The position numbers and the translations under genes are program-made. 64,000 nucleotides of DNA from an uncultured Planctomycetaceae bacterium. GTDB taxonomy: Bacteria; Planctomycetota; Phycisphaerae; SM23-33. The notes below the pieces were generated by a model, which did no database searches, was not told the DNA's origin, and saw only the letters and a program-made list of their open reading frames with translations. Positions 8,167-27,531 of the stretch are shown piece by piece (within the stretch, counting starts at the first letter, position 1; every line of letters begins with the position of its first letter). The stretch is from NCBI GenBank assembly GCA_964401835.1, contig CAYNZP010000009.1, positions 18,020-82,019 of the forward strand, read 5' to 3'.

Positions 8167-8243
8167 GTTTACCTCATAATTTAATTCGACCCAGGCAGAA
8201 GTTTACAACAGTCAGTTTTTGGGCACAATAAAATAGCAAAATA

Positions 8244-8420: not shown

Positions 8421-8476
8421 TACAACAAAACCAGATAAATTACCCGCAAGATTATTTTATTTGAAGGAAAGGTAAG

Positions 8477-8959: not shown

Positions 8960-9034
8960 GAGCTTGCACAAACATCCCGTTAGCTGTACCATCGAGTCAC
9001 TAAGGGGGTAGTCCCCATTTAATGAGGTGCCTGC

Positions 9035-10033
9035 ATGATCTCACGCGTCCATAGCAGCATTCTCCAGGGCATCGAAGCTGTTGGCTGTGAAGTGGAAGCC
9101 GACGTTGCCCGGGGCGGAATGGGAGAACTCAAACTCGTCGGGCTGGCAGAAGCTTCCGTCAAGGAGTCCGTCTCTAGGATACAGGCTGCACTAAGAAACA
9201 GCGGCTATCGCTGGCCGGGGCCCAAGGTGACGATCAATCTTGCCCCTGCCGACGTGCGGAAAGACTCTGCCGCATTCGATCTTCCTATTGCCATTGCTGT
9301 CAGCATTGCTGGGGGAATTTTTGCCACCGAGAAGATCGACGACTATTTGCTGATTGGCGAACTCGCCCTTGATGGCCGCATCAGGCCAATAAAAGGTGCA
9401 CTCGCCACCGCCATGCTCGCAAAGCGGACCAACTATCGAGGAGTAATCGTTCCAGTCGACAATGCAGCTGAAGCGGCCGTCGTCGAAGGCTTGGACGTGA
9501 TTCCCGTACGGTTCCTCGCAGATGCCGTCGGATTTTTGACCGATGAATTGCCCATCGAACCCAAATTTCTGGACCTTGAAGACACCTTTAATATCGCCTC
9601 TGCATATGATGTCGATTTCGGTGACGTTCGCGGGCAGGAGTCTGCCAAGCGGGCCCTTACCATCTCCGCTGCCGGCCATCACAATGTCATCATGATAGGC
9701 CCGCCGGGCACCGGCAAGACAATGCTCGCCAAGCGGATGCCGACAATACTTCCGCCGCTCACATTGGATGAGTCTTTGGAAACAACTCGTGTCTACTCCG
9801 CACGAGGCCTGCTTGAACCGGGCGACTCTCTGGTGGTATCCCGGCCGGTACGCACGCCGCACCACTCCACCAGCGCCCCTGCCCTCATCGGCGGTGGCAG
9901 CGTGCCCCAGCCCGGCGAAGTTTCGCTGGCCCATCATGGCGTTTTATTTCTTGATGAGTTTCCCGAGTTTGCCCGCGCCACACTTGAGATGATTCGCCAG
10001 CCGCTCGAAACAAGTATAATAATTTCTATATAA
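9035..10033 (+). pseudogene. comM: comM/yifB (Mg-chelatase-like AAA+ ATPase) N-terminal fragment, disrupted by island insertion
   Basis: Lon-like N-domain, Walker A ([12 protein letters not shown]) and Walker B ([10 protein letters not shown]). Reading frame ends abnormally ([12 protein letters not shown]) exactly where GC content drops. Confidence 0.85.
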
Positions 10034-10356
10034 GATTTTAGGGGCATTTCATATTTAGAATTCAGCCAAGTTACTTAGAAAAACGAACAATATTTTATAG
10101 AAAGTGCCTTTTCTTAATTTAAAATCCGGCATAGAATTAAATTTGAAAATTAGATATTAGTCTAGCTAGCATTTGTCGTTTCGGAAAACTGCGATATTTT
10201 CTTGGGGACATGGCGATGCATAGGTGGACTCCCGCAATGGGAGTTCGCTGATGAATCCTGTCCCCAGGCTGTCGCAGGCCTTCCGGAAGGGTAGTAATTG
10301 GCGGCTCCCCTTCTTCATAAGGGGGCCATTCCTAAACAAACGCAGAAAGGGGTAAG

Positions 10357-10965
10357 GTGATGAAAACAACAATCTTCAGCTTTTGCATATGTTTTGTAAT
10401 TCAACAGGTGTGTGCTGCGCCAACGTATTTGTCTTCAACCGGCCATTCCTACGAGCCTATTGCCATACTTCACCCCTTTGGTGAAGGTTATACATGGTAT
10501 GAAGTTCGAGATTTGGCCGCAACTAGCACCTATCTAGGTGTTCAAGGACATCTGGCCACTATAACATCCGCTGAAGAAAATCAATTTGTGGCAAATCTTT
10601 GCGATGCTCTTGGGCATGACACGTTCTATTGGCTCGGAGGCTATCAGCCAGAAGGCACGCCTGAGCCAAACGACGGGTGGCAGTGGGTGACAGGAGAATC
10701 TTGGACCTATGCCAATTGGAAAGCTGGCGAGCCAAACGATGCAGGAACCTTTGGTGTTGAAGACCACGTAGGAATAGTAGGCTCAAGCGACCAGGGACTC
10801 CTTGGGCAATGGAATGACATGTATGCAGGAGTTAATCCCGACCGGAATTGGAGCAGCTATGTTATTGAATACCCCGTTCCAGAACCAGCAACGTTTTCAT
10901 TATTCGCATTAGGTGGAATTGGATTGATATGGCAGAAAAAGGCCAGATTGAAGGCCCAATTATAA
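10357..10965 (+). CDS. Secreted C-type-lectin-domain protein with PEP-CTERM anchor
   Basis: Signal peptide. CTLD-like motifs (GHLATITSAEENQFV, WLGG, WQWVTGESWTYANWKAGEPND, WNDMY). C-terminal VPEPATFSLFALGGIGLIWQKK. Confidence 0.65.
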   Translation: MMKTTIFSFCICFVIQQVCAAPTYLSSTGHSYEPIAILHPFGEGYTWYEVRDLAATSTYLGVQGHLATITSAEENQFVANLCDALGHDTFYWLGGYQPEGTPEPNDGWQWVTGESWTYANWKAGEPNDAGTFGVEDHVGIVGSSDQGLLGQWNDMYAGVNPDRNWSSYVIEYPVPEPATFSLFALGGIGLIWQKKARLKAQL

Positions 10966-11124
10966 ATTAGACGAAGAGTGCCATGAGCTTGAAATCATCT
11001 CCGGCCTTTGAGTAGCCGGATAATTATTGACAAAAATCCAAGAATGCTTGAAGATATAAAGCAATCTTCGACCAATTTTTCCCCTTTCTAATTGGGTGAT
11101 GATTTGTCATTCAGAAATGAACTC

Positions 11125-12030
11125 TTAATTTTTAGGATTAGCTTTTAAATGCTCATTCAAAAATTCTTGAGTAAGTTCAATAGCAAATTTTTTAATGTGT
11201 TCTTTTGCGTTGTACTTACCAACTGAACTGCCCAAATAACCCTGTTCATATACTTCGGCTTCAGCTGCAAAGTCCGAAGACCACTCCAGGATAAAACTTG
11301 ACCTTGTTATCTCAAAGTTTATGTCGTACAAATAAAATTCATCAGTTCCTTTTATAAGATTCAAATTTAATTCACACTCAGGCAAACCATAGTTTCCCTT
11401 TAAGTTTTTTCTAGGATTAATTACTTTTACGCCAGCTTTTCTAAATTCAAATTCAACAGTTCGTTCTAATTCCTCTCTAGATAATGGGCATTCTTTATCA
11501 ATTCCTCTAATTAATAATGAATAACCTTCAATGCCTTTTAAATATGAATTAATGCCTTTTTTAAAATCTTCATTCAGTTCATCTTGATTAATTCTATTTA
11601 ATATCCATCCAGTTAATTGCGAATATGTAGGGCCATTGAGCTCGAATTTTTCTTTTTCATTTTTCAGTCTTTCTATTTCTGCATTTTTCTGAATTACTAA
11701 TTCATTCAGTCTTTCTTCTTCTGGTAATTCATTAATATCTTCAGGATCTGATTCAGAGATTTGATTTAAATCCAGAAGTTTAGATTTTAGGTGGTTATTC
11801 TTTGTGTATAAAGCTGTACAAAGTATCACACCAATAAAAGCGGCAATTGCCATAAAAGAGATTAGCCGGCCATTCTGCCACCAAGCTAAAGATTTTGTGT
11901 TTGGTATTAATTGCCAAACATGCCCGCAAGCTCCACACTTTGCTTTCTTCCCCATGGCATCATCACTTAGTCTTACTGGATTATTACAGTTTGGACATTG
12001 CGTATCCATCTTTTGCCCCTTTTCCTTCAA
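11125..12030 (-). CDS. Zinc-ribbon (MJ0042-type) / TM / coiled-coil protein with unknown C-terminal domain
   Basis: CPNCNN...CGACGH zinc ribbon, one TM (ISFMAIAAFIGVILCTALY), acidic coiled coil, ~170-aa C-terminal domain. Confidence 0.5.
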   Translation of the reverse strand: MKEKGQKMDTQCPNCNNPVRLSDDAMGKKAKCGACGHVWQLIPNTKSLAWWQNGRLISFMAIAAFIGVILCTALYTKNNHLKSKLLDLNQISESDPEDINELPEEERLNELVIQKNAEIERLKNEKEKFELNGPTYSQLTGWILNRINQDELNEDFKKGINSYLKGIEGYSLLIRGIDKECPLSREELERTVEFEFRKAGVKVINPRKNLKGNYGLPECELNLNLIKGTDEFYLYDINFEITRSSFILEWSSDFAAEAEVYEQGYLGSSVGKYNAKEHIKKFAIELTQEFLNEHLKANPKN

Positions 12031-12176
12031 ATGACGTGACTGATAATCTTAAAATCTTAATCAAATAAAGCTTACAGTCAATAATTCAGTTTATAAATCT
12101 GCCCAATAACTTGATAACTTTAGCTGTTTACTTGATAATCAGGCAGATAATTAGCCAATCTCCTAAGGGGAAAACG

Positions 12177-12917
12177 ATGAGAAAATTAAGTTACCTGGGG
12201 CTTTTTCTAACTTTTCTAATCATTCCGTCCGTCATTTGGGCCATAGATGCTGAAAATAAGGCTATCCCAAAATTTGAAAAGTTAGATTTATCCGATTCAA
12301 CAGCTTATTCGATTACAAGAGTTGTTGACGGCGACACTATCATCGCCAACATTGACGGAAAAGACACAACCATCAGGCTTATAGGGGTTGATACGCCTGA
12401 AACCGTCCATCCAAGCAAGTCTGTTCAATATTACGGCAAAGAAGCATCTAACTTCACAAAGAATTTGCTACAAGGTGAAAAGGTCTATCTTGTCACTGAC
12501 CCCCAGCAAGGCAAGACTGACCGATATGGCCGAACACTTGCTTATGTCTATCGAGCACCTGGTGGTCTATTTGTAAATGCCGAGATTATTCGGCAAGGCT
12601 ATGGGCATGCGTATGGGCGGTATCCATTTAAGTATCTTGAAGAATTCAGGCGGTTGGAAAAGTTTTCAAGAGATGCTGAAAAGGGATTATGGGAAGTCCG
12701 GCAGATTACCAAATTTTCTTCAAAATCTCCCTTAATGCCAACAGTTGTTAAACCCAAATCAGACACAGACAATGTTACCGTCTATATAACACGAACAGGC
12801 AAGAAATATCACAGGGGGAGTTGCAGTTATCTTCGGAGAAGCAAAATTCCTAAAAATCTTAGTGACGCCAGAGCGGCTGGCTATGGGCCATGTAGTCGAT
12901 GTGGCCCTCCTAGATAA
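12177..12917 (+). CDS. Secreted thermonuclease (staphylococcal nuclease / SNase fold) with Cys-rich C-terminal tail
   Basis: Signal peptide. SNase motifs (VVDGDTI, IRLIGVDTPE, DRYGRTLAYVY). C-terminal CSYL...CSRCGPP. Start chosen at the RBS-supported ATG. Confidence 0.75.
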   Translation: MRKLSYLGLFLTFLIIPSVIWAIDAENKAIPKFEKLDLSDSTAYSITRVVDGDTIIANIDGKDTTIRLIGVDTPETVHPSKSVQYYGKEASNFTKNLLQGEKVYLVTDPQQGKTDRYGRTLAYVYRAPGGLFVNAEIIRQGYGHAYGRYPFKYLEEFRRLEKFSRDAEKGLWEVRQITKFSSKSPLMPTVVKPKSDTDNVTVYITRTGKKYHRGSCSYLRRSKIPKNLSDARAAGYGPCSRCGPPR

Positions 12918-12933
12918 TTAAAAGGGGAAGCAC

Positions 12934-13395
12934 ATGGCAAAGATAAAATATCAGAAATTAATCTTGGTGATGTTGATTGGGATGGGTCTTTCTAGTATCG
13001 CTTTTTCTCGACAACCCCGCAAAAGGCAAAAACCATGGTGGGAATCAATCCCATCAAGCCAAGTCAAGAAAATGGGGCTACATAAGCTTTCAACGAGAGA
13101 AAAAAATGAACTCTTGAATTTTTTTATGAGTGTCCTAAATGGCTCGGGGGATGTTGCGGCAAGAAAGTACCTTGAGCGTAAAGGCTGGGAAAAGATGACA
13201 GTAGCAAAAAAAGCCTCTTCGGGAAAATTGATTCTCATCGACGATATTGGAAGGCAGTATCTTGCGGAATCATACGTTGGTTTTTATGGAATCTTTAAAG
13301 GCGATTGTGTGTGGCTAGAAAGTACCTTTGGTTATACTGACATGATTACCCCAGACGGCGACACGGAAAACGCAAAAATTGAGACGTTGAATTGA
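12934..13395 (+). CDS. Hypothetical secreted protein
   Basis: Signal-peptide-like N-terminus. Co-directional with the nuclease, 16-bp spacing. Confidence 0.4.
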   Translation: MAKIKYQKLILVMLIGMGLSSIAFSRQPRKRQKPWWESIPSSQVKKMGLHKLSTREKNELLNFFMSVLNGSGDVAARKYLERKGWEKMTVAKKASSGKLILIDDIGRQYLAESYVGFYGIFKGDCVWLESTFGYTDMITPDGDTENAKIETLN

Positions 13396-13604
13396 AAACT
13401 ATACAAGGTTTTCTTTACTATAAACTGACCATTCTTAAATTTTCATCCAGTCACAAAGAGGGCTGGAATTGTTAAGAAATCGCAAAAGATGCTTGAAGAT
13501 ATAACGCTACTTTTGGTCGATTCTAAAAGCCTCTATGGTTTATACCTATCTTGGAGGTTTTACTTTTGTGATTCAACAAACAATAACCGCAATCATAATT
13601 TGAA

Positions 13605-14111
13605 TTATTGCCATCTAACCTCGGGACTTGTGATTCTCCAGTCATCTGGACGGATTGGTTCTATCAAACCGGGCCCGTGAACAACTTCATCTTGTATTAC
13701 AATTATCTGGTCAGTCCAATCTGCTTTTCGATAGGCTAGCTTGATTTGAAATGGCAAATTTGGAAGTGCTGCTTCTGTAGCATTTTCTTCAGACTCATTT
13801 TTCTTTAACCAGCGTTCAGCTTCAATAAAAACCTTTGCCTTAAATTTGCCTGGGGGTAAAGAACGCGGCAACTCTTCAATATTATCTTCAAATTTAAAAT
13901 AACCTCGCTCAGGTTTCCTAATGTTTGGCTGAGAATAATAGAATTCATTTCCTGCTTTTATCTGATAGTCCAATCTCGCATTTGAATGAGACACGTTTAA
14001 TTCGAGTTCAATTTCGATTTGCAGCAGCTTGCTTCCAAGCTTATTAAAAGAACCAAATTTTTTAGAAATGACCATATAGCTACATATTCCGTCTCTATTG
14101 TTTGTTTCCAT
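13605..14111 (-). CDS. Hypothetical protein (island)
   Basis: ORF only. Confidence 0.35.
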   Translation of the reverse strand: METNNRDGICSYMVISKKFGSFNKLGSKLLQIEIELELNVSHSNARLDYQIKAGNEFYYSQPNIRKPERGYFKFEDNIEELPRSLPPGKFKAKVFIEAERWLKKNESEENATEAALPNLPFQIKLAYRKADWTDQIIVIQDEVVHGPGLIEPIRPDDWRITSPEVRWQ

Positions 14112-14388
14112 AATCTGCCCCTTTCTTCCCTAAAAATGAAACAACACCTTTTTATTTTACCCTTAAAACAAAATTTTCAAAATTTAGGGGCATTGGCAAG
14201 CGCCCCAATTTGTATAATAGTGTATCTAGTTAAGGGCCAGTAAGTCAGTGAAACCCAAGAAAACCCTGCCCGGCTAGATTAAGGTATGCCAAGGCGTGGT
14301 AAGGTATGGTACGGTTTGGTATGGTTTGGTATGGAAAGCACGGCATGAAGCTTTAATAGATTCATGCCGTGCCTAATTACTGGTTTCT

Positions 14389-14917
14389 TTATGTTTCTAT
14401 TAAAATGTTGGAAATTTCTTCTGCCAGCATCTCCGCAATCTCCGCTACGGAACCTTCAAAGACTTCGCCATCGGCAGATTTACGAAACATAAACCGGCGA
14501 TTATTAGCCCCTTCATCAACCAGCGATACTTCTTCTACATCAATGTCGAAAATTTTCTTTTTTCGTTTAGCCATTAGCCACCTTCGCATTCCCAGCCATT
14601 GAAAATGAGTTTATTTTGCCTTTTTTAATCTTGGCCCAAAGGTCATCGTCCAAAACTTTGACTGTCATGTACCAAGCCCCGGCTGGAATGTAATCCCTGC
14701 CCTTGTAGGTATCCCGTTCAGCTTGAAAGGATTCAACAACCACTGCATCGGCACTTCCCGCATGTTGTTCGCCGAGATTGAAACCATTCTTGGCAAAACT
14801 TTCCATGGCTTTGAAAATTTCTTCCCTATCCGTCCAGTCTCCATCGGCATCGACAGTATTTGGTTCGTAGACGATTCCGCCGACCAATCTCTTATCTTGC
14901 GATTTTATAAAATCCAT
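14389..14917 (-). pseudogene. XkdF-like phage protein (DUF2213-like) split by a frameshift into 14567-14917 and 14389-14589
   Basis: N-part GIVYEPNTVDADGDWTDREEI and C-part VSLVDEGANNRRFM are both XkdF-family hallmarks. 23-nt overlap in different frames at an A/T homopolymer (KRKKK). Confidence 0.5.
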
Positions 14918-15003
14918 AGAACATCATCTCTAAGTCGGGCAACAACCGGCCAGCCATGTTTAGCTAGCGCTGGCCGGAGTTCCCATTATTTGAAGAATTT
15001 ATT

Positions 15004-15507
15004 TTAATAAGCTGAACGTGCGCCAGCCCAAGGAGCTTCCTGCAAGTCATGGCCTATAAATACTGCGCTGACCTTGCTTCCTACGCCGCTCGAATCATAC
15101 TGAACATTCACATAGCGGCTCACATTTTTGCAATTAACAACGTACATGCCGTCTTCTGTGATAGAACTAATCGTATTGCTGGAAACGGTGAGGTCAGAAA
15201 CTGAAGCGCCAAGTAAGCCTTGTGCGTACAAGTTTGAAGTATCGCTTGTCAGCACAATTTGAGCCGTGCCATCACTTGAAACGGCTGCTAAAGCTGTGCC
15301 AGACGTTGCAAAATCTGAAATCAAACTCGTCCAGACTTCGACATTGCGAACATCACTGCCAGCGGCATTGTCAACAACCAGAACAAGGGTTCCGTTCTGA
15401 GCGCTGCCAGCATCTATTTCACCAACCAGCAAGTCAGAACCAGCTGCGCCGGTTGCTGAATTGTTTTTCAAAAGTGCGAATCTACTTTCGGGAATAATAC
15501 CTTTCAC
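15004..15507 (-). CDS. Hypothetical phage structural protein (Ser/Thr/Ala-rich, possible decoration or Ig-like)
   Basis: Directly downstream of the capsid gene. Low-complexity beta-rich composition. Confidence 0.3.
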   Translation of the reverse strand: MKGIIPESRFALLKNNSATGAAGSDLLVGEIDAGSAQNGTLVLVVDNAAGSDVRNVEVWTSLISDFATSGTALAAVSSDGTAQIVLTSDTSNLYAQGLLGASVSDLTVSSNTISSITEDGMYVVNCKNVSRYVNVQYDSSGVGSKVSAVFIGHDLQEAPWAGARSAY

Positions 15508-15523
15508 TTTAAATCAACCTCCT

Positions 15524-16615
15524 TTAGCTTGTGCTAATTCCCTTAATGACAACGAACGATTCGGGATGTCTGAGCAAAATGCCGACGTGCTTAATCACCC
15601 TCAAATGAACTTGGTCACGATAAAACGCATCGTAACTGTGCATCGATGTTTCGATTCTCAGGCCACGATTTTCGCCGATAATGAAATCCCTCCAATTGCC
15701 ACAGACTATATAGGTTTCGTCTGCATCTGGCATGTTGGTAACAGCCATTTCATTTGTAATACCCAACGGCCTGCCGTAAAGCGTCCTTAAATCAATGGTC
15801 GAATACCTATTATCATTCTGGCTTCCAAGGATGTAATTGCCTTCAGCATCCTTCAGCTTTTCAAGCTGGTACTCGATAACAGGTGGTGCAATAAATCCGG
15901 TAAGCTTTGAGCTTGAAGTACGAAGTTGATAATTGGCTTCAAGAATATCATCAAAACCAATCCCTGAACCATTTAAGTCTGTGCTTTGAACTCTTGGGTT
16001 GTAGTAGATACCCAAAGGCTCAGTGCCTCCTGTGCCCTCCAAGAATACCCTGTCTTCCTCCAGTGCGATTTGGGCTGCCAGTTCTGCACGAATTACATCT
16101 TCCGCAGCATCGGCATTGTCCAAAAGTTCTCGACTCATCTTGTAGATGCAGGTCGCTTTGCTGACCTCTAAAACCTTTTTGCCGAAATCCATAGAGGTGT
16201 CTTCTGAAATGGTTGCATTTTCGCTACCCCAGGTGATTTGGGGGCCGTTTTCTACAGCAGCATATGAAAGTTTGGGGCCTTTCATGTTCACGGTGCGAAT
16301 ACCGGGCATTTTACGAATTACTGATTCGTCTTTTAAAAGCTCAATAACACCGCCGGCCAGTTGTTCAGGCACAAGAAACCCACCCTGTGCGCCACCATCT
16401 TGGCCAAAAGTTTTATAAATTCGCTTTTCGTTATCTGCTCCTTGCCAATCATTGAAAATTGCACCTTTTAGATATTTGGCGATGCTAACATTCGATTCTC
16501 CAACCTCGATATCGCCGAAACTTTTCCTTACCCCTCTTTCAGATTTGACTGAATTTTGAAGCCCCTTGGCAAACGCCTCGATAAATTCAGCCTTCTCTTT
16601 TTTCGTCATTTTCAA
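15524..16615 (-). CDS. Phage major capsid protein, HK97 family
   Basis: 363 aa. Pattern typical of TIGR01554 (GGFLVPEQ..., ...ELLDNADAAEDVIRAELAAQIALEEDRVFLEGTGG). Confidence 0.7.
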   Translation of the reverse strand: MKMTKKEKAEFIEAFAKGLQNSVKSERGVRKSFGDIEVGESNVSIAKYLKGAIFNDWQGADNEKRIYKTFGQDGGAQGGFLVPEQLAGGVIELLKDESVIRKMPGIRTVNMKGPKLSYAAVENGPQITWGSENATISEDTSMDFGKKVLEVSKATCIYKMSRELLDNADAAEDVIRAELAAQIALEEDRVFLEGTGGTEPLGIYYNPRVQSTDLNGSGIGFDDILEANYQLRTSSSKLTGFIAPPVIEYQLEKLKDAEGNYILGSQNDNRYSTIDLRTLYGRPLGITNEMAVTNMPDADETYIVCGNWRDFIIGENRGLRIETSMHSYDAFYRDQVHLRVIKHVGILLRHPESFVVIKGISTS

Positions 16616-16834
16616 ACTACATCAAAACTCCTTAAAATTATTGAAATATGGACATACCAATATTGGTTGAAATAAAACTACTGTTCACCGGCAGCTTTTA
16701 CGCTCCGTTATTAGAAATGGGCTCCTGTTACTTCTAGGCAGCCTTGAGAAATGCTTCCATCAGATGATTGGCAAGCGTGAGAGTTCCGCGAATGGGCAAC
16801 CCTCTACATATATATTATACTAAAGGCAGGAAAA

Positions 16835-17125
16835 CTAGCCCGCTCTTTTAAATTGAATGCCATTATCGCCCGGATATGGCTTTCTGTGGTCATGCTCCCC
16901 TGCAACAATTTCCAAGGGAATACCCTTCGGGAAGGCCTTGCAGATATTGCCCTCTATGAGGTGTTTACAATAATGACATTGCGGGAACCCGCCCATGACT
17001 TCTTCGATGAATTTTAGCTCTAATTCATTCCACGCTTTTATTTGTTCACTTGTTTGGCCATTTTCAGGAAAATCCTTTTGGGCTTCGTCTAGTGCTCTTG
17101 TTCTTTTCGACATAAGACTCTCCAC
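16835..17125 (-). CDS. Hypothetical protein (Cys/His-containing)
   Basis: ORF only. CHYCKH...C motif. Confidence 0.3.
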   Translation of the reverse strand: MESLMSKRTRALDEAQKDFPENGQTSEQIKAWNELELKFIEEVMGGFPQCHYCKHLIEGNICKAFPKGIPLEIVAGEHDHRKPYPGDNGIQFKRAG

Positions 17126-17244
17126 GAACTGGTTTTAAGCCATTTTTTCATTTCCAATACACCTTCAGGCATTTCCTTCATAATAATTGATTACAAGTAA
17201 TCCTCATTAATCCTAGCCATGTTGCAAAATGCTTCTTTGACAAG

Positions 17245-17850
17245 TTATTCATCATATAATCCTGATACACCATCCTTCATATCTTCAAAGGGAACATCGG
17301 CGTACATATTGGCCGTTGTAGCAGGCGAAGCATGGCCCAATTGCTTTTGAACTTGCCTAAGGTTTTTGGTTTTTCGTAATAGATGAACTGCCATAGTATG
17401 TCGAGCACAATGAATTGATAGGTCTTTTGGCAATCCTGCTCGTTTGATTTCAGCTTTCCATATTTGCTGAAGCCCCTGGGCGGTTAAAGGCCCGCGTTTC
17501 CCTATGAATAACGAACCTTTTTTATCAATAGATTCCCCTACGGTATCTTTCCATGCAATGAATTCTTTCAAATGCTCCAGAAGCTCAGGAGATATGGCAA
17601 GGGTTTCAGCTAATGGTTTTTTACGCTTTAATCTTCTTACCTTCAAAGCTCCTCGTTTCAAATCGACATCGCCAATCCTAAGATTTGCCATTTCTGAAAC
17701 ACGCAAACCAGTAGACAAAGCCAAATCCACAACCATCCAGCTCAATACGCCGGTTTTACGCCCCTGAGCTATATCTTTTAATGCTCTATGTTCGCTGAAC
17801 GTTCTTAACTGTCTGGCCTCCTCGATGCTCATGTATCGCTGCCTATCCAT
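17245..17850 (-). CDS. Tyrosine recombinase, catalytic-domain-only (201 aa)
   Basis: R...HCARHTMAVHLL...LGHASPATTANMY catalytic residues. Lacks an N-terminal core-binding domain. Confidence 0.75.
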   Translation of the reverse strand: MDRQRYMSIEEARQLRTFSEHRALKDIAQGRKTGVLSWMVVDLALSTGLRVSEMANLRIGDVDLKRGALKVRRLKRKKPLAETLAISPELLEHLKEFIAWKDTVGESIDKKGSLFIGKRGPLTAQGLQQIWKAEIKRAGLPKDLSIHCARHTMAVHLLRKTKNLRQVQKQLGHASPATTANMYADVPFEDMKDGVSGLYDE

Positions 17851-17961
17851 TTCTACACCCTCTATTCAATAGTTTATAGCAATCTTTCAATATATTATAA
17901 GCTATTTCTGGGGGTATAAAAGCGTGATTTTCAATATATTTATCTAATTTTATATTGAATA

Positions 17962-18696
17962 TCAATCCTCGAAATCCGTATGCCTAGTCCAGCCGGGGTC
18001 GGGGCCATCGCCGATACATTTAAAAGCTGAGCCTAAACGCTCAGACGGCAATTGCTTCGGCTGGATATCTGAAACAATAGGTAAATCCTCTGTTTCTTGG
18101 ATAGGCGTATGAATATCTGATTGCTCATTAGATTTGCTTTGCTCAATAGGCTCTTGGCTCTGCTTGTTATCTTCGCATGGCAAAGTAAAGCCGGGCTTGG
18201 TTACTATGGTAATGTTTCCCTCACCATCCAAGCCCTCAAACTTTTTTAAGTTCATTAGCAGTTGAGCCGCGCTGACGGGGGATTTTTTCAGCAAGTCCAA
18301 ACAAAATTTTTCGACCCCATGCCTCTTTAGGGCTCGATGAAAAGCAGAAAGAAGGCCTAAATCTTCGTCATCCCCCTCCCCTGAATCCACACATGTGTTC
18401 TCAGTGTTCTTTTTATGTCCTCTACCCGGCCCGCCTGGGAAGCCCTTGAGGAAGTGGCCTTTGGAGTCTTTATATTGGGAATAATCAATGTTATCAATAT
18501 TATCCGGAGGTTCAGGATTTACTTTAGTGTCTGAAATGAGTGGAAGATTATTATCAGTTTCCACATGCCCATCTAAATTTGATAAGTCAGATTGGTTTTG
18601 TACCTCTATTATATCAACATCATTTGAGCTATTTTTTTCACTATTAAGATATTCTATTTTTCTTTTGAGCCTTTGTTTCAAATTTCCATCAATCAC
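17962..18696 (-). CDS. Hypothetical acidic protein
   Basis: ORF only. Highly acidic, low complexity. Confidence 0.3.
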   Translation of the reverse strand: MIDGNLKQRLKRKIEYLNSEKNSSNDVDIIEVQNQSDLSNLDGHVETDNNLPLISDTKVNPEPPDNIDNIDYSQYKDSKGHFLKGFPGGPGRGHKKNTENTCVDSGEGDDEDLGLLSAFHRALKRHGVEKFCLDLLKKSPVSAAQLLMNLKKFEGLDGEGNITIVTKPGFTLPCEDNKQSQEPIEQSKSNEQSDIHTPIQETEDLPIVSDIQPKQLPSERLGSAFKCIGDGPDPGWTRHTDFED

Positions 18697-18853
18697 ATGA
18701 CATCAACTCCAAATATTTGAACAAATATTTACCGAATATTTACTTTACATCTTTGGGTTACTAGTTATTAGTTTTGACCAGTTTTTCCATATAACATTAC
18801 ATGAGGCATCTCTAAGAGCGTTAATGTGAAAACTACCCTTTAACTGGTAACCG

Positions 18854-21043
18854 TTAACCTTTCCTTTTCGCCTCACGCATCTTTTGAATTCTTGCTACGT
18901 CGTCATTCGCAAAATCAATGCCCAAATAAACCAATTTCGTTGTGCCATCGATTTTTACCCGGTCTCTATTAAAACCTAATTGACTAATTGCCCGCCCAAA
19001 GCTTGTGTAATTATCAAGCCATTGATACTTTGGAATCTGGTTATCCTTGCACCATTTTTTATAATGGCCCCTCAATTCAGCAGCAGGAATGCTATACCCT
19101 TCGCCTGTTATACATTTTTCGGACACGAACTCATTGAGAAGATTCTCTTCCTTGCGATATTCGTTTGTTGCGAACTTTACTTCCTCCGGCTCGGCAAGGC
19201 CCTCTTTTTGCCATGCAAGACAACCTTCCAATGCCCAATTAAGAATACCAGATAATTCGGCTTGTAGTTTTACTCCCAAGTGCCTATCACACTCTTCTTC
19301 AGATATTACGATATTAAACGGAATAAGCTTAATTCTATCCCAGATTGCGTGTGTATCTTCTTCAACCTTGGGCTTATTGTTCGTAATTAAGACAGTTTTG
19401 TTTGTCCTTTCGAACTGGAAATAATCCTGTCGCATAAATCGAGCTTTAATAAACTTGTCTCCCGTCAGATTCTTGACAAGTTGTACTCGCATCTTGCCGT
19501 TACGCTCAGTTTCTGAAGCTATTATCAATCGCTTACCCATAAGGTCGGCCAGTTCTGTTGGATGCTCGTTGTATTTTCGCACGCTTAATAGATTAGGCGG
19601 CGCATAACCAGCATATTCCCCCATCATAGTCAATATGGTATCCAAAAAGGTATTCTTGCCATTGCGTCCTTCGCCAAAAAAAATTGGCAGAATTTGCTCG
19701 CTCACATCACCAGTCAACCATGTGCCGGTAAGTTTCTGAAGATATCGAATTAGGTTTTCGTTATTACCCAATACACGCTTGAGGAACTTATCAAATAAAG
19801 GACACTTCGCTTCCGAATCGTATTGAGCTGGCGCCATTTTAGTTATCAAATCTTCCTTCCTGTGCTCTTGAAATTCTCCTGTCTTCAAATTTAATGTTCC
19901 GTTTTGACAATTAAAAAGGAAAATATCTTTATCTAAATCTTCGGGCGAAACGACTAAAGCTTGATTGTCCTTTGCCATACCAACAGCAGCTCTAACTCTT
20001 TCTCGACTTAAACTTTTCTCAATATGTTTACCCAATGCTTTACAGACAGCAGAATCGGTAGATGTTTTAGCTTCATCGTAAATATCTTTGATTGCCTGAA
20101 TCATTAGAGAGTTTACAGAATCAGTTAGGTCTGGAGCCCAGTATTGACCGTTCCACAGATACCATTTGCCCTGTTGTGGACAATATTTCACCTCGTTGCC
20201 ATGCTTCTTTGCGAATCTCAGTGCATTTCCTTCATCTGTCAGAGAGAACTGGTCCGGTAAAATTGTGCCCTCTGTGGTTCGCATCACGACAGAAGTCTCA
20301 GTCGAATGCTGGTAGCCCATGGCGCTTTGAACAATTTTTATAATCTCCTCTTCCGACAAAGGAGGCACACACCGTTTATTTTCAGAAATGATAGCGACGT
20401 ATACCGATTCAGAAGTCAAGCCAAGTTTAGCCATTTTACAGGCCTTGCTGAAAAGGAAGTCATTTCTTTTGCCCTCCGGAATTGCTTCGTCTGATTGGTT
20501 GACAACTGGAGAATTTTTCTTTTTTAATTTCTCCAACAACCAAGACGGAGCCTCTGCAATTTCAACATCCTCGGGACTACAATTTTTTGCCCATTTGTAG
20601 CGAGTTCCTGAACTGTGTAAACTTGGTGGAACAATAACACTCCCACCTTCGCCTTTAATATCTAAACCTTCGCCTAACCCACCATTATTACAACGGATTT
20701 CTTGGTTTTCTGGATACCGAAAAAAGATATGGCAACCACCGCCGCCTGTTTCCGCCATTACCGTCTCCGGTAATGGTTCGAATTCAGATTCTAGCATTTC
20801 AAGAGATTCATAGCCGCCCGGTTGATAATCAACATCGAGAACAAATATTCCGCTCTCTTTTCCCGTTGCAATTGCAATGTTCTCATCGGCAAATCCGTTA
20901 TTCCACCAGTTTCGAATTTGCGTCTCATCTGTCGTTGCGTCTTTAAACCCATGCTTCGTTAAAGGTATTTTATCCCCACGTTTGACAGGAAAAACATGAA
21001 AACCCTTTTGGGCGTATTTCAATGCCCTATCCAAATTTTGCAT
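18854..21043 (-). CDS. Bifunctional PrimPol-domain / D5_N-P4-type primase-helicase
   Basis: N-terminal bifunctional primase-polymerase domain (HVFPV...KDATTD...VLDVDY). C-terminal P4/D5 helicase Walker A (GEGRNGKNT). Confidence 0.8.
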   Translation of the reverse strand: MQNLDRALKYAQKGFHVFPVKRGDKIPLTKHGFKDATTDETQIRNWWNNGFADENIAIATGKESGIFVLDVDYQPGGYESLEMLESEFEPLPETVMAETGGGGCHIFFRYPENQEIRCNNGGLGEGLDIKGEGGSVIVPPSLHSSGTRYKWAKNCSPEDVEIAEAPSWLLEKLKKKNSPVVNQSDEAIPEGKRNDFLFSKACKMAKLGLTSESVYVAIISENKRCVPPLSEEEIIKIVQSAMGYQHSTETSVVMRTTEGTILPDQFSLTDEGNALRFAKKHGNEVKYCPQQGKWYLWNGQYWAPDLTDSVNSLMIQAIKDIYDEAKTSTDSAVCKALGKHIEKSLSRERVRAAVGMAKDNQALVVSPEDLDKDIFLFNCQNGTLNLKTGEFQEHRKEDLITKMAPAQYDSEAKCPLFDKFLKRVLGNNENLIRYLQKLTGTWLTGDVSEQILPIFFGEGRNGKNTFLDTILTMMGEYAGYAPPNLLSVRKYNEHPTELADLMGKRLIIASETERNGKMRVQLVKNLTGDKFIKARFMRQDYFQFERTNKTVLITNNKPKVEEDTHAIWDRIKLIPFNIVISEEECDRHLGVKLQAELSGILNWALEGCLAWQKEGLAEPEEVKFATNEYRKEENLLNEFVSEKCITGEGYSIPAAELRGHYKKWCKDNQIPKYQWLDNYTSFGRAISQLGFNRDRVKIDGTTKLVYLGIDFANDDVARIQKMREAKRKG

Positions 21044-21107
21044 CTTACATCACTACTCCTATTTTTAGCCTAATCTTCAAAAAAGGATGCGAAAAGGAAC
21101 GACAGGA

Positions 21108-21398
21108 TTAGGCTGCCGTTCCTTCCCCTGCTCCCGCAGAGCTGCGCAGGCCAGCGCCGCTGCATTTTTTAAACATGGTTACGACCGCCGTAACCTGATA
21201 AGTATTCCAAAGAAATTTCCCATTGATTTGCTTGCAATATCCGCCCGCAAAACTTCCACGAGTGGGAAAACCTCGGTCATACAACAGTCGGTATTTTTTC
21301 AGAATTCCCCGAAGTTCAAGGGGAGTTAATCCGTTTTTTCTTGCGATTCGATTAAGCCTATTGAAAACAATTTCGTTTTGCTCGTTTTGCTCATTCAT
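21108..21398 (-). CDS. Hypothetical small protein (island replication/regulatory operon)
   Basis: ORF in tight array with the primase. Confidence 0.3.
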   Translation of the reverse strand: MNEQNEQNEIVFNRLNRIARKNGLTPLELRGILKKYRLLYDRGFPTRGSFAGGYCKQINGKFLWNTYQVTAVVTMFKKCSGAGLRSSAGAGEGTAA

Positions 21399-21717
21399 CT
21401 AACTCACCCCAAATTTGTTGAAGAATATCAGGGTGTGGCAGCATCGTATATTCACCAGAAAAGGGGTCAAAAAACTCAAAGCCGATTTCTGGGCCATCCT
21501 CTTTAATGAGTAATCGAATCCATCCTGATTCGAACGCCCGTTCTAGGTTCTCCATGAACTTTTCTAGGCCAAGATTAAAATCACCGTAATATTTATGTTT
21601 GATTAAGCCAGTAGCTAAATCCGCTATCATTGCTTGAAATGCCGAATGCAACTCTGGGTCCGACTTTTCGAGCTCAGTCAACGTGTACGGCAATGGATTG
21701 GGATATATCAACTTCAT
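21391..21717 (-). CDS. Hypothetical protein
   Basis: ORF, overlapping neighbours. Confidence 0.3.
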   Translation of the reverse strand: MKLIYPNPLPYTLTELEKSDPELHSAFQAMIADLATGLIKHKYYGDFNLGLEKFMENLERAFESGWIRLLIKEDGPEIGFEFFDPFSGEYTMLPHPDILQQIWGELDE

Positions 21718-21731
21718 TGCAACCTCCTTTA

Positions 21732-21968
21732 TTAATCCTCAACTTTTTCAAATAATCGGTCTATTTCTCTGCCTTTGTTACAATCTCTTTCCCAAAGTTC
21801 TTTTGAAATCCTGAAAGGCGGCGACCCCGGTTTATATTTTTTGCTTTTTTCGGGATAATGATTTCTTCCGCTATACGATTGTCCTGTAACGCTGTCTCGC
21901 CAATATCGCCCGGGGCGAAGTTGAACGAGGACGCCCGATTCGATATTCGATAATTTCGATGTTGTCAT
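21732..21968 (-). CDS. Hypothetical protein
   Basis: ORF. 1-nt overlap with the upstream gene. Confidence 0.3.
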   Translation of the reverse strand: MTTSKLSNIESGVLVQLRPGRYWRDSVTGQSYSGRNHYPEKSKKYKPGSPPFRISKELWERDCNKGREIDRLFEKVED

Positions 21969-22582
21969 TATTTAACCTCCGATTTTGTTTTGAATGATTT
22001 GATAAAATTCCGAAGTTCTTCTGCATTGATAGACAAGAATGGGTTTGAGCTAAATGCCAAAAAAGCAGAGGCCTTACGCATTATCGCTCTGCCTTCACGA
22101 TGGAGTTGTTCGGCTTTTTCTGCTGATGCCAATGCAGATTCGAGAGCTTCTATTGCTTTTTGAGCTTCAGCTTTTTGCTTTTGGGATAATTGTTCGAGTT
22201 TCTGAACCGAGTGCCATGAAGAATAGGACTTTTCGAGATAATTCGCCCATGCTTTGATTGCCGCACGAGCATCATATTTTGAATTCTCTCTGCTTTCCAG
22301 ATATTCAAATAAGGCGATCTCCTCCAGTGTTTTTGGCCTTCGCCCGCCCGTGGGATGGGTTTTGCCCCATTGGTCAAGTGATTTGCGCCGGGCTTCGGCC
22401 GCTACGATTCGCAAAGTTTCTTCTCGATCAACATCTGCGTTGATCGCGTCACATTCTTGGCACGTTCCCAGAAGTGCGGCCCGCCGCGAATCCCCCTTGG
22501 TAAGTTCCTTAAATCCCTCTGGTTTGCCTTCTAAATATTTGTCTTCTAGTGCTTTAAACTGATTCTCGTAATTATCTTGCAT
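21968..22582 (-). CDS. Hypothetical protein
   Basis: First gene of the leftward operon, diverging from the recombinase across an AT-rich spacer. Confidence 0.35.
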   Translation of the reverse strand: MQDNYENQFKALEDKYLEGKPEGFKELTKGDSRRAALLGTCQECDAINADVDREETLRIVAAEARRKSLDQWGKTHPTGGRRPKTLEEIALFEYLESRENSKYDARAAIKAWANYLEKSYSSWHSVQKLEQLSQKQKAEAQKAIEALESALASAEKAEQLHREGRAIMRKASAFLAFSSNPFLSINAEELRNFIKSFKTKSEVK

Positions 22583-22965
22583 TCACAAATCACTTCCTTA
22601 ATTATCTTATAAACATCTATATTTTCAGGGTTTGAAACCCATCCTCCTATTTTAATATTGTACTAAACGTTTCAAATTTTCGAACCAAACCTGCTCCTAC
22701 ATTAATTCATAACTTTCCTTCATTAATATAATTACACCAATACTTTTGTTTTTAGCTCATTTTTTCCAGATTTTTCTGGCCAAACATCAATTTAAGAGCC
22801 AGAAAAAACTCTTGCATTAATATATTATACTGAAACGAACATTCCTCGTGACAAGAAAATTTTCATGTTTTAACATCTTTTAATACAAGCTTTTATATCT
22901 TTTTAGTCACTATTGTTGTTCAAATACTATTTGCTTGAGTATTTGCTTTTCTATATAATACAAAT

Positions 22966-25080
22966 ATGACTAAAGCATTTTTAATGACAAGAGTAAGTAC
23001 CGAAGCGCAAGCCGACGTTGGCGAAGGCCACAGTGCCCAGTTACATGCCTGCCAAACCATCGCAAAAAGTAACGGCTTTTCAAACACTGAACATGTTTCG
23101 GAAACGATTTCTGGATTCACCGAAAATATTGATGACCGCCCGAAGTTGGCAAAAGTTTTAAATGAGGCTCAAGCAGGCGACATTCTCATCTGGGACAAGT
23201 CCGACCGTATTGCCAGAGACAAAAAAGCGAAAGAATCAATTCTTGATGAAATGGCAAAAAAAAGGCTTCGCTGTATTGTTGGCGGAACAGAATATGATTT
23301 AACCAATGAAGAACACCGCTTAATTTTAACGCTATTCGGGGGCTTCGATCATTACATGGGCCGAGCCCTTGTAGCTCGTATGAAATCCGGTAAAGAAGCA
23401 CGCCAACGCAAGGGTGGAATCATTTACACTAACGCCCCTTTCGGATTGACGTATCAGCCTCCCAAAGACTCGAAAAATTGGGAAGAGCGAACCTTTGTAA
23501 TTAATCCCACCGAAGGCAAAATCGTAAAAAAGATTTTCGAAAAATATCTATCAGGTTGGTCACAAGAAAAAATAGCTGATTGGCTTAACCAACAAAATAT
23601 AACCACAAGGCGTGGTCGAAGGTGGACGGGCCATAAAATTAGCAATTTGTTGAAGAATCCCATGATAGCTGGACGGGTTTATGCCAATCTTTATAGCTAT
23701 GCCCCCGGCACTCGAAGCCGAAAAATGAATCCCCAAAGGGATTGGCAATTCGTCAAATACATAGGCGAGATAGTTCCGTGGTCAGACTTTGGACGAGTGC
23801 AACAAAGATTAGAGCGCAATCTCCCACCGCATCGTCGAAACTCGGGCGATACATCCAAACAGAAAAAAGGACGAACTGCGAAAGACAGATATTTTCTTGC
23901 AGACCGCTTAAGCTGTGGAAAATGTAATGGCAAAATGGGATTGATGGGCGGAACGAAAAAACCGGACGGCGAATACGTCCGTTATTACAAATGCTCGTGG
24001 AGCAGGAGTACCCGTCGAACTCGGGTACAAGGGAAGGATTGGTGCGAATCATCGGGAATTTTTGCCGACCACGCTGAATTTCTTATTTGGCACTTTGTCC
24101 GTAAGGTCTTTTTGAATCCGAAAGGTTTTTTCAGCGATATACTAAAAGGTAACCCCGCAAAGGCCGAACTAATAAATGCAAAGCAGGAACTACAGGGTTT
24201 TGAAAGTAGGCTTGATACAGTAAATTCAAAAATCGAAAAAGCTATCGACATGCTTCTCGAAACTGAAAAAGGCTCTGCTCGTGAAGACACTTTAAATGCT
24301 CAACTTAAGAAACTCGAAAAAGACCGCGATTCAATTAAAGAACAAATCGCTCGGCAGTCCGGTATTGTTGTGGGGATTGAACAGTTTGCAAATCAGTTAG
24401 ATTTTGTGAAAGACAATAAAGAAGCATTGAATGGAATCCAAGTTGTAGCAAGGCGAGTTATCGATGATTTAAATTACGAGCAACGAAAAGAATTAGTTAA
24501 TGCCGTACTGGGAAATTTAACATTCAAAGTTGAAACAATCAGTAAAGAAGAATGGAAAACTTACCGAAAATGCCCTAGTGGGCAATTTGGAAAGGACTTA
24601 TACGTTATTTTAAGGGGCGTTGAGAGAATTCCTACTGAACCGCCGAAAACGAGGTTAGAGGCAATAGAACAGACGGTCTACGAAAGTAGTTTATCCGACC
24701 TGCATAAAATTCCATCCGTAGGCTGTGCCTTCAACCCTAGGGCAAAAGCACGTGGACAGGCCTTTAAACTTGTTCCGCAAGGCCGATACAATGTTCGCAA
24801 CGCTTTAAGAGATATGGCGAGATTTGCAAAAAGCCTCAAGCCCCGTATCTACAAAAAATACAGAGACTTAGATTCAACTAAAAATAATAATACTGATAGA
24901 AGACGGCTGCGTTACGATACCGCGCGTCCACAGTACGCTAAAGTTCCCGGCCCGGCTGATGCTGGTAGCTGCCATGAACCCCTGCCCATGCGGCTACTTC
25001 ACCGACCCCAAAAAGCCGTGCAAATGCTCGCCGAACCAGGTCCAGCGTTACCTGTCGCGCATTTCCGGGCCGTTGATTGA
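22966..25080 (+). CDS. Large serine recombinase (resolvase/invertase N-domain); 3' end reads through the island/chromosome junction
   Basis: TRVSTEAQ catalytic serine motif, recombinase domain, Cys-containing zinc-ribbon-like region, coiled coil. The last ~60 codons lie in high-GC host DNA. Confidence 0.8.
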   Translation: MTKAFLMTRVSTEAQADVGEGHSAQLHACQTIAKSNGFSNTEHVSETISGFTENIDDRPKLAKVLNEAQAGDILIWDKSDRIARDKKAKESILDEMAKKRLRCIVGGTEYDLTNEEHRLILTLFGGFDHYMGRALVARMKSGKEARQRKGGIIYTNAPFGLTYQPPKDSKNWEERTFVINPTEGKIVKKIFEKYLSGWSQEKIADWLNQQNITTRRGRRWTGHKISNLLKNPMIAGRVYANLYSYAPGTRSRKMNPQRDWQFVKYIGEIVPWSDFGRVQQRLERNLPPHRRNSGDTSKQKKGRTAKDRYFLADRLSCGKCNGKMGLMGGTKKPDGEYVRYYKCSWSRSTRRTRVQGKDWCESSGIFADHAEFLIWHFVRKVFLNPKGFFSDILKGNPAKAELINAKQELQGFESRLDTVNSKIEKAIDMLLETEKGSAREDTLNAQLKKLEKDRDSIKEQIARQSGIVVGIEQFANQLDFVKDNKEALNGIQVVARRVIDDLNYEQRKELVNAVLGNLTFKVETISKEEWKTYRKCPSGQFGKDLYVILRGVERIPTEPPKTRLEAIEQTVYESSLSDLHKIPSVGCAFNPRAKARGQAFKLVPQGRYNVRNALRDMARFAKSLKPRIYKKYRDLDSTKNNNTDRRRLRYDTARPQYAKVPGPADAGSCHEPLPMRLLHRPQKAVQMLAEPGPALPVAHFRAVD

Positions 25081-25462
25081 CAGAATAGATATTCACGTCG
25101 AAGTGCCGCCCGTCCCGTGGCGACAACTGCGAGGCGGCAATGGCGATGGTATCAGCTCCGCGGATATGCGCGACCAGGTAGTCTCTGCCCGTGCGATACA
25201 GAAAAGTCGTTTCAGCGGCAATGGTTCTACTACAACTAACGCTACGATGGCCAGCAAACAGGTTCGCAAATTCTGCCAGCTGGATTCATCGGGTGAATTG
25301 CTACTCAAACAGGCAATGACGGAGCTGGGCCTCTCCGCCCGCGCACATGACAAGGTGCTGCGAATTGCAAGAACCATCGCTGATATCGAAGGCGAGGAAA
25401 AAATCCAGCCGCACCACCTGGCCGAGGCAATTCAATATCGAAGATTAGACAGGAGATTGTAG
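24899..25462 (+). pseudogene. comM: comM/yifB C-terminal fragment (EDGCVTIPR...FPARLMLVAAMNPCPCGY...)
   Basis: Resumes the conserved YifB sequence immediately after the RQPLE motif that ends the N-fragment, in a different frame from the recombinase. Confidence 0.85.
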
Positions 25463-25538
25463 AAAACACCACTTGAGAGTCACTCGGAAAAGCTATTGTA
25501 ATTTTTAAACAAACTTCAACTTCTATCATTACCATCTG

Positions 25539-25754
25539 CTAGGGGCAGTCATTGCTTGGAACGTATTCAATCAAATCCCCTGGTGTGCAATTAAGGACTT
25601 TACAGATAGCCTCAAGGGTTGAAAAGCGAATCGCACGAGCTTTATTGGTTTTCAGAATCGACAGATTATTTACTGCAATACCCGTAGCTTCAGCCAGATC
25701 TTTAAGCTTCATCCTATTATCAAGAAGAAGATAGTCCAAACGAATGCGGATCAT
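25539..25754 (-). CDS. XRE/Cro-type HTH transcriptional regulator
   Basis: 71 aa, HTH (LKDLAEATGIAVNNLSILKTNKARAIRFSTLEAICKVL). Confidence 0.7.
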   Translation of the reverse strand: MIRIRLDYLLLDNRMKLKDLAEATGIAVNNLSILKTNKARAIRFSTLEAICKVLNCTPGDLIEYVPSNDCP

Positions 25755-25766
25755 GATATCTATTCC

Positions 25767-26270
25767 TTAAACAATTACCTTGGCTTCTTCAATGACCGGA
25801 ATGATTCGTCGCAAGAATTGCCCCAGTCCAATGAGAACCAAAATTTTTACTAACGATAGAAGTGTAGATGGTCCAAGTGAAGCTACAGTGAAATACCACG
25901 CTCCTGTGCGAACAGATAACAAAAAACAAAAATTAAGCAGAAGGCTAGAGAAGACAAGAATCGCGAAGATGTAAAGAATCTTGTCACCGTGGCGAAGTAC
26001 CCAGCCTGGTTTATCGTTAGTTTCGAGCAAGAAACGCAGCAACTGCCCAACGCCTATCGCAGTTATTCCTCCGCCGAAGGCCATAACGAAGGACACGAAA
26101 TATCGAGCTCTTAGAAAAACATTTATTTGTTCGGCGCCCTTTTGCAACTCAAAAAGGCCATATGCAAAGAATGGCAGCATCAAAACCAAGACCACCCATC
26201 CCATAATCCGAATGATAGAACAGCGAGTTCTGAGTAATCGTTCATTTTGCTTTATAATAGCGTTTGCCAT
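25767..26270 (-). CDS. Small polytopic membrane protein (DUF2975-like partner of the HTH)
   Basis: 4 TM helices. Start set at the RBS-supported ATG (AAGGAG) to avoid overlap with murG. Confidence 0.5.
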   Translation of the reverse strand: MANAIIKQNERLLRTRCSIIRIMGWVVLVLMLPFFAYGLFELQKGAEQINVFLRARYFVSFVMAFGGGITAIGVGQLLRFLLETNDKPGWVLRHGDKILYIFAILVFSSLLLNFCFLLSVRTGAWYFTVASLGPSTLLSLVKILVLIGLGQFLRRIIPVIEEAKVIV

Positions 26271-26421
26271 AGTAATTCTCCTTTGGATTAACTTGTTATA
26301 TGTGTAAAAAATAACGACAAACGTTATATTGTCAATGATAAACTTTTTTGTTTTGGTGCATCCATCATTAATTATTGCTAGCTCAAGCTGCCATTCTGTT
26401 TTCAATCGCCTGCGGTCAGAC

Positions 26422-27531
26422 TTAAGAATTCTGTAATAACCACTGTGCAATGATTTTTGAGGAGATGCTTTTATCGCTGCCGGAAATTCCATGGTGCATT
26501 TTTAATAGCTGTTCTTCGTCTTGCAAAATCGGGATAAGACTTGCGCCCAGGTTCGCTTTATTTGAGTCTGTATCAATTTCATCTTCGCATATCACGGCTG
26601 TTCCCGAGCTGACAAGTTCCGCTGCGTTGAGTTTCTGCTGCTGGTCACGATGATGAGGGTATGGCATGATGACAGCTGGAGTTGCTGTCGCGGTCAATTC
26701 CGCTATTGTCGATGCCCCGCCGCGACAAAGTGCCAAATCGGATGCCGCGTAAGCGAGGTCCATGTGGTCGCAATATTTTCTGGAAACAACTCTGATTTTT
26801 CCAAAAGGCGTCTGGGCCGATTCATTCGCCTCGCCGGTTATGTGGATTATCTGCCAGCCTTGGGCAAAATCATCGAGCTTATCAGCCAATGCGTAAACCG
26901 CCTTGTTAATCGAAGCTGCTCCAAAGCTGCCGCCAAGGACTAACAAGGTCTTCCTGTCGCTATCCAAACCAAAATGCTCCAAAGCTTGAGCCCGATTCGC
27001 ATTAGTTATATCGCTTCTGACAGGACAGCCGACGCATCTGACCCGCTCCTGCAAGCGGCCAGCAAAACAGCTCTGCGTTGACTCGAATTGAGTGAAGATT
27101 ACCCGTGCATGTTTCGATAAATGGCGGTTGGCGATTCCCGGCACTGCATCGGGATTCAACATTGCCGTAGGAATGCCAACCTTGGCGGCCTTGCTGACCA
27201 AATTGGCAGCTGCAAAACCGCCAAGACCAAGCACAGCTGCCGGTTTTAGGTCGCCCAACATATCCCGGGCCTGGGCGCAGGAAGCGATGTAGCTCCTGCA
27301 GAAACGACCCCACCCGCAAAAACTTCTGGGTAGTGGTTTAATCGGCTGGGGAACTGCCGCAAAACCCCTTCCGAGTGAGTCCAGAATTTTCCTGTCGATG
27401 CTTCGATCCGAACAGGCAAATACAATCTTCGCTTCCGGCTGCGATTTATGAAGTTGCTCGGCCACCGCCAGGCCGGGATATAAATGCCCACCCGTTCCGC
27501 CGCCGGCAAAGATGTAAATCGGCTTGGTCAA
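26422..27531 (-). CDS. murG: UDP-GlcNAc:lipid I GlcNAc transferase MurG
   Basis: IFAGGGTGGHLYPGLAV motif, GT28 architecture. Confidence 0.85.
   Translation of the reverse strand: MTKPIYIFAGGGTGGHLYPGLAVAEQLHKSQPEAKIVFACSDRSIDRKILDSLGRGFAAVPQPIKPLPRSFCGWGRFCRSYIASCAQARDMLGDLKPAAVLGLGGFAAANLVSKAAKVGIPTAMLNPDAVPGIANRHLSKHARVIFTQFESTQSCFAGRLQERVRCVGCPVRSDITNANRAQALEHFGLDSDRKTLLVLGGSFGAASINKAVYALADKLDDFAQGWQIIHITGEANESAQTPFGKIRVVSRKYCDHMDLAYAASDLALCRGGASTIAELTATATPAVIMPYPHHRDQQQKLNAAELVSSGTAVICEDEIDTDSNKANLGASLIPILQDEEQLLKMHHGISGSDKSISSKIIAQWLLQNS

Follow-up and report, generated by a model that had tools for sequence, protein, structure and literature searches.

The 64,000-nt stretch of DNA analysed here (hereafter the window) carries a 14.9-kb phage-like island that most probably entered the comM gene of a Phycisphaerae-type planctomycete through the action of its own large serine recombinase (LSR), with the crossover inside the recombinase gene (int) and a passive, host-encoded tail on the recombinase, a reading to which a probability of about 80% is given. 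The 2-bp GA crossover falls in codon 645 of int, so that the P arm of the attachment site codes for part of a non-conserved C-terminal tail. In the excised circle, the P' arm would provide the last 10 codons and the stop, while integration would move this arm 14.9 kb away to attL and leave an ORF running out of frame into comM until a chance stop 59 codons further on. Recombination between attL and attR, expected to be conservative, would restore comM to an intact gene and regenerate a 655-aa recombinase gene. The junctions, the anatomy of the att sites, the restoration of comM, the two recombinase C-termini and the occurrence of a relative in both states were established at the level of sequence comparison.

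The recombinase ORF (22966..25080, + strand) starts with ATG and encodes 704 aa without any earlier in-frame stop, in agreement with the sequence-only reading, which had described a frame open to 25080. Its product is an LSR by its sequence features, with catalysis predicted: it combines a serine-nucleophile domain with a Recombinase domain, a zinc ribbon and a coiled coil, and is associated with dyad-symmetric att sites. The element-encoded part (codons 1-645; 22966..24900, + strand), delineated through Pfam, alignment, an AF2 model and fold matches, contained a Resolvase domain (PF00239; residues 6-151; E = 2.2e-20), a Recombinase domain (PF07508; residues 181-285; E = 6e-22) and a recombinase zinc ribbon (PF13408; residues 311-379) scoring 24.2 bits, just below the 25.3 cut-off, followed by a coiled coil at residues ~398-483, seen as long helices (398-483) in the AF2 model. 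In an alignment of 13 LSRs (the window protein and 12 others), R9 and the catalytic nucleophile Ser11 were invariant, as were the zinc-ribbon cysteines C317, C320, C343 and C360. Foldseek matched the AF2 model to full-length serine-integrase complexes and Bxb1, with E-values between 2e-19 and 3e-15, and also to PhiC31. The top structures (9dxf, 9dxd, 9y66 and 9dxh) were serine integrase-att complexes, presumably those of the SPbeta integrase described in PMC11722253. A PDB sequence search with the recombinase returned no match, and the protein is highly divergent, no phage record exceeding 25% identity to it; the phage WO recombinase was among its nearest phage-record matches (25% identity). 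Beyond the zinc ribbon and the coiled coil, alignment and the AF2 model delimited a family-specific C-terminal region (residues ~560-633; window 24640-24865) that belongs to no Pfam family and was modelled with moderate confidence.

The crossover was mapped to a GA dinucleotide present at 24899-24900 in attR, within recombinase codon 645, and at 10007-10008 in attL, with only GAA common to both junctions. The sequence-only reading had placed the island/host boundary at ~24891: its position within the ORF was borne out, and the exact site is 8 bases further on, upstream of the end of the ORF at 25080. The left boundary reads CCGCTC-GA-AACAAGTATAATAA and the right boundary AATACTGATA-GA-AGACGGCTGCG, from which attL (B arm, GA core and P' arm; 9979..10036, + strand) and attR (P arm, GA core and B' arm; 24871..24928, + strand) were defined from the mapped junctions and their dyad symmetry. 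The P arm of attP falls within recombinase codons ~636-645, and the P' arm (10009..10041, + strand) would, in the attP assembled in silico, supply the recombinase's last 10 codons and a TAG stop in the excised circle. The sites were reconstructed as CGCCAGCCGCTC-GA-AGACGGCTGCG for attB, which includes a CAGCCG...CGGCTG dyad, and AAATAATAATACTGATA-GA-AACAAGTATAATAATTT for attP, with predicted junctions ...CGCCAGCCGCTC-GA-AGACGGCTGCGTT... and ...AATAATACTGATA-GA-AACAAGTATAATAA..., respectively.

Both reconstructed sites showed dyad symmetry centred exactly on GA (9/20 for attB and 14/20 for attP), with lower values at offsets of 1-2 bases either way; such scores occur at 4.5% of host positions for attB and at 0.013% of island positions for attP. 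Sites of serine integrases are expected to span about 45-50 bp, with inverted repeats and a 2-bp core (PMC5311408), and the window att sites, as reconstructed, have this anatomy and not that of tyrosine-integrase sites. The proposal that the attachment site lies inside the 3' end of the integrase gene thus held when attP and attB were rebuilt, both being symmetric on a shared GA whose core copy lies in codon 645. No match to the exact 22-nt attP junction pattern was found in viral contigs, promoter and terminator scans near both junctions gave background level only, and an Rfam search of 8000-27000 returned no match.

The host gene is split at the same dinucleotide. The N-terminal fragment of comM, encoding a YifB/Mg-chelatase-like AAA+ ATPase (9035..10008, + strand; Pfam ChlI and Mg_chelatase positions 1-135 of 207), ends in ...EMIRQPLE at the GA core, after which the frame continues for 7 island codons (TSIIISI, then a stop). 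The C-terminal fragment (24899..25462, + strand; Pfam Mg_chelatase positions 130-204 and Mg_chelatase_C), identified through Pfam and the reconstruction, is in frame from the GAA Glu codon (EDGCVTIPRVHSTLKFPARLMLVAAMNPCPCGY...). As had been noticed from the sequence, it overlaps the recombinase ORF in another frame, the host part of that ORF being read in the +2 frame of comM. Joining 9035-10008 to 24901-25462 in silico gave a 511-aa ComM without stop or indel, with ~80% identity at 100% coverage to intact YifB/ComM proteins of ~510 aa from Phycisphaerae and other planctomycete MAGs. At the DNA level, the intact comM of contig L011 aligned without gaps across the reconstructed attB. The expectation that conservative excision would restore comM is therefore supported by a full-length protein alignment with orthologues as well as by this gapless DNA alignment.

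Directly downstream of comM, positions 25463-26500 have a GC content below the host average, contain genes for an XRE-type HTH protein (25539-25754, - strand) and a membrane protein (25767-26492, - strand), and are not syntenic with the comM neighbourhood of L011. This segment could be another small insertion.

The low-GC island itself (10009..24898; 14,892 bp with one core copy counted) was outlined from the GC profile, Pfam and PHROGs. Pfam annotations identified genes for a C-type lectin with a PEP-CTERM (10357-10965, + strand), an SNase (12111-12917, + strand), an XkdF-type protease (14567-14917, - strand), an HK97-type capsid protein (15524-16615, - strand), a small tyrosine recombinase with a Phage_integrase domain (17245-17850, - strand) and a PrimPol/D5 helicase (18854-21043, - strand). 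PHROGs gave no functional assignment to ten further island ORFs, the single match being to a family of unknown function, and neither Pfam nor PHROGs detected terminase, portal or tail genes; the gene content of the island is more suggestive of a phage satellite or of a defective prophage than of a complete phage. The small island ORFs received no functional assignment from these two databases, and no candidate for a recombination directionality factor (RDF) emerged. The tyrosine recombinase, the second recombinase of the island, has 201 aa and consists of a catalytic domain only; it could act, for example, in dimer resolution or inversion. The cargo-like lectin/PEP-CTERM gene lies at the left end of the island, in surroundings of higher GC than the rest.

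As the recombinase ORF crosses attR, the protein would differ between the two states of the element, as the sequence-only reading had anticipated. Joining 24900 to 10009 in silico yielded a predicted excised form of 655 aa, in which ...KNNNTDR is followed by 10 residues and a stop at 10039-10041, whereas the integrated form has 704 aa: at integration, the 10 native residues would be replaced by 59 comM-derived ones (59 codons and a TGA stop; 24901..25080, + strand). The possibility that the length of this open run is significant in itself was considered and rejected, since runs of at least 59 codons are found from 8.7% of start positions in the same relative frame of the 28 host genes of the window (median 15), and since an intact comM orthologue without the island has a run of 66 open codons in this frame. 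In the AF2 model, pLDDT was below 50 over residues 634-704, which comprise an element-encoded linker and the host-encoded part, the minimal alignment depth there partly explaining the low values.

The distribution of this arrangement was further examined among relatives of the recombinase, which are rare. A search with the full-length protein found three close homologues (P0002, P0003 and P0004, with 49%, 46% and 38% identity, respectively). An exhaustive HMMER search with the C-terminal 176 residues against 1.84 billion representative proteins retrieved only 5 proteins, a word-indexed search with the same 176 residues had no match, and a recombinase-family search of viral contigs revealed no relative. 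Genome contigs provided one relative (L005) and metagenome contigs five, three of the latter being N-terminal fragments that are uninformative on the 3' end. The homologues were conserved up to ...LKPR(I/V)(F/Y), corresponding to query residues ~625-629, and then diverged into 14-31 unrelated residues. The comparison of C-termini proposed from the sequence thus revealed variable tails past ~625-629, without sign of a lost stop.

The element carrying P0002 was recovered in both states, free on a metagenome contig (L001) and integrated on a contig of a Phycisphaerae MAG (L005). On L001, the gene upstream of the recombinase is homologous to the one upstream of the window recombinase, and ~290 bp beyond the recombinase lies an SNase gene (2948-3652) whose product is 59% identical to the island SNase; by its gene order, this contig represents a circularly joined, attP-form arrangement. 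The presence of this secreted-type SNase next to attP in the related element suggests that it may be a core gene of the element family. On L005, the recombinase abuts an opposite-strand comM N-terminal fragment ending in ...EVLRQPLE (Mg_chelatase positions 1-130). The two contigs share 96% identity over 2,535 bp, stopping exactly at a TC core (2629-2630 in L001; 2543-2544 in L005), which is GA on the comM strand and belongs to the same Glu codon as the window insertion. The attP of L001 is dyad-symmetric on TC (11/20, top 1.6%). The natural occurrence of a free and an integrated form would point to attP x attB recombination by the enzyme. The free form of the relative ends in ...LSLS followed by AGMVFSIGR and the stop (631 aa, 9-residue tail), and the integrated form in ...LSLS followed by RGWRSTSSVCRLNSGSSSRNRTP and the stop (645 aa, 23-residue tail). 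Two recombinases with 49% identity therefore each have an attP core about 10 codons before the int stop and target the same comM dinucleotide. The window and L005 elements have opposite insertion orientations at this GA, and their att arms differ. The asymmetric central dinucleotide of serine integrases sets the polarity of integration, and opposite orientations are what would be expected on that basis.

A further probable case, in a different target gene, was provided by P0003 (L002/L003), in which an abrupt switch from AT-rich to GC-rich sequence occurs at the equivalent place; in L002, an unrelated opposite-strand ORF, for which no Pfam match was obtained, overlaps the recombinase gene at its 3' end. 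Finding a relative in both states with the same arrangement indicates that the family, as represented by the window element, the L001/L005 pair and this probable third case (L002), characteristically has its attP core within the 3' end of int. L004 and L013, which end 9 and 49 nt after the stop, do not discriminate between an attP and a hybrid state. A short ORF on a GC-rich metagenome contig (L014, 1224-1811) is a decayed copy of the recombinase C-terminal region only, probably the remnant of an old insertion; as a decayed remnant, P0136/L014 was set aside as a comparison.

We infer that the host-encoded tail is a passive by-product of an attP located at the very end of int and not a regulatory device, because it is non-conserved, has low pLDDT and occupies an open run expected by chance. 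The functional recombinase would effectively end near residue 633, and the simplest reading of the last ~20 codons is that they are att-site DNA that happens to be translated. The importance that the sequence-only reading had implied for the tail is thus probably overstated.

An alternative is that the core was selected to lie within int because the 655-aa and 704-aa forms behave differently, for instance in stability, attL x attR competence or RDF binding, as in Mx8 IntP/IntX or mycobacteriophage integration-dependent immunity. The retention of the core within the ORF of the 49%-identical relative despite other att arms and the opposite orientation, and probably also in P0003/L002, would fit such a role, for which there are precedents in tyrosine systems (PMC6070905, PMC8092301). 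However, the host-encoded tails share neither length nor sequence (59 residues in the window, 23 in L005 and ~22 in L002), the excised-form tails (the 10 residues of the window and AGMVFSIGR in the relative) have no common motif and no -AA degron, and the whole region past residue 633 was modelled with low confidence. The arrangement would be equally explained by an attP abutting int, which is the usual case (PMC5311408), and selection for two distinct forms is considered unlikely. With regard to an activity difference of the Mx8 type between the 655-aa and 704-aa forms, the sequence features argue weakly against it. The bolder proposal that this LSR clade uses an attP core inside the last ~10 int codons as a state sensor is judged quite unlikely. 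If it were true, the excised genome would encode a 655-aa enzyme and the prophage a form with a host-encoded extension in place of the native tail. Stability, or competence for integration versus excision, would then distinguish the two forms, and a counterpart of Mx8 IntP/IntX or of integration-dependent immunity would be known for the first time from a serine integrase.

Two other readings concern the state of the element and the identity of its integrase. The lack of detected terminase, portal or tail genes, which sets the island apart from a complete prophage, would be compatible with a fixed, dead remnant in which the original recombinase stop has been lost and the true boundary lies elsewhere. 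Nevertheless, junctions that are clean at base level are accompanied by intact, symmetric att half-sites, and the full-length recombinase retains every catalytic and zinc-binding residue. In none of the homologues does a stop codon occur at the crossover position or upstream of it, and in the free form of the relative the stop lies beyond the core. This explanation, already largely refuted by these features, is very improbable. The small tyrosine recombinase at 17245-17850, an island protein with a Phage_integrase domain, could in principle be the real integrase, the LSR merely lying next to the island end. The serine-type anatomy of the att sites argues against this: they are LSR-type dyads centred on a dinucleotide, and the 3 bp shared by attL and attR are too short for a tyrosine-integrase overlap region. 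Moreover, the 201-aa protein comprises a catalytic domain only and the homology break of the relative falls inside the LSR gene, which makes this assignment scarcely credible. Integration by the LSR, with the crossover inside its own gene and a passive tail, remains the best explanation overall.

The skin (SpoIVCA) and SPbeta (SprA) elements of Bacillus subtilis resemble the window element in that an LSR element interrupts a host gene which conservative excision would rebuild. These systems are defined by programmed excision tied to a host developmental programme, and we know of no report of a crossover inside the recombinase ORF in either of them. The analogy, which had been drawn in the sequence-only reading, holds for the chemistry and the restoration of the host gene, that is, for the split of the gene and its restoration in silico. 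A parallel to the altered C-terminus is offered by myxophage Mx8, in which attP lies in the int coding sequence. The recombinant gene formed there upon integration has another 3' end and encodes an integrase with an altered C-terminus, a swap shown by experiment to change integrase behaviour (PMC6070905). Likewise, the attP core of the window element is part of its integrase ORF, and the C-terminus of the enzyme would change at integration. Mx8 Int, however, is a tyrosine recombinase and the window enzyme a serine recombinase, which makes this an analogy and not a shared membership, and the window element would swap only a non-conserved tail (10 for 59 residues). In mycobacteriophage integration-dependent immunity, attP lies inside a phage gene and integration changes the C-terminus of its product (PMC8092301), but it is a repressor gene that is split, by a tyrosine recombinase, and the tail removed is a degradation tag, whereas the window recombinase tails have no evident one.

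Concerning LSRs more generally, attP is usually adjacent to int (PMC5311408). The genes most often reported as targets of LSRs are those of the magnesium chelatase family, to which comM belongs (Durrant et al. 2022, PMC10083194), and sr1WO of phage WO integrates into a Wolbachia magnesium chelatase gene (PMC9203015). The window element shares the enzyme class and the target family of these elements in Mg-chelatase/ComM-family genes, and differs in its very divergent LSR with a rare C-terminal region, in the crossover within its own ORF and in its planctomycete host. No LSR with attP inside its own coding sequence was found in the literature, a weak negative given incomplete coverage. Streptococcus Javan23, considered as a case of an LSR ORF crossing a prophage end, was rejected as uninformative, its boundary being simply the gene end.

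At a practical level, the deposited protein of this locus (698-704 aa) is chimeric, its last 59 residues being out-of-frame comM, and for cloning of the window integrase, the 655-aa excised-form sequence or a truncation near residue 633 would be advisable. The window gives a complete, base-resolved attP/attB pair with its GA core for a very divergent LSR, and the relative, inserted at the same attB dinucleotide but in reverse, supplies its own attP and a hybrid site. An LSR island in comM does not overturn current understanding, and its crossover within its own int is a modest variant, conserved in a rare planctomycete-associated clade. With it, planctomycetes join the hosts whose comM serves as a landing site for LSRs, and it provides a simple system for asking whether a serine integrase can be modulated by an att site within int.
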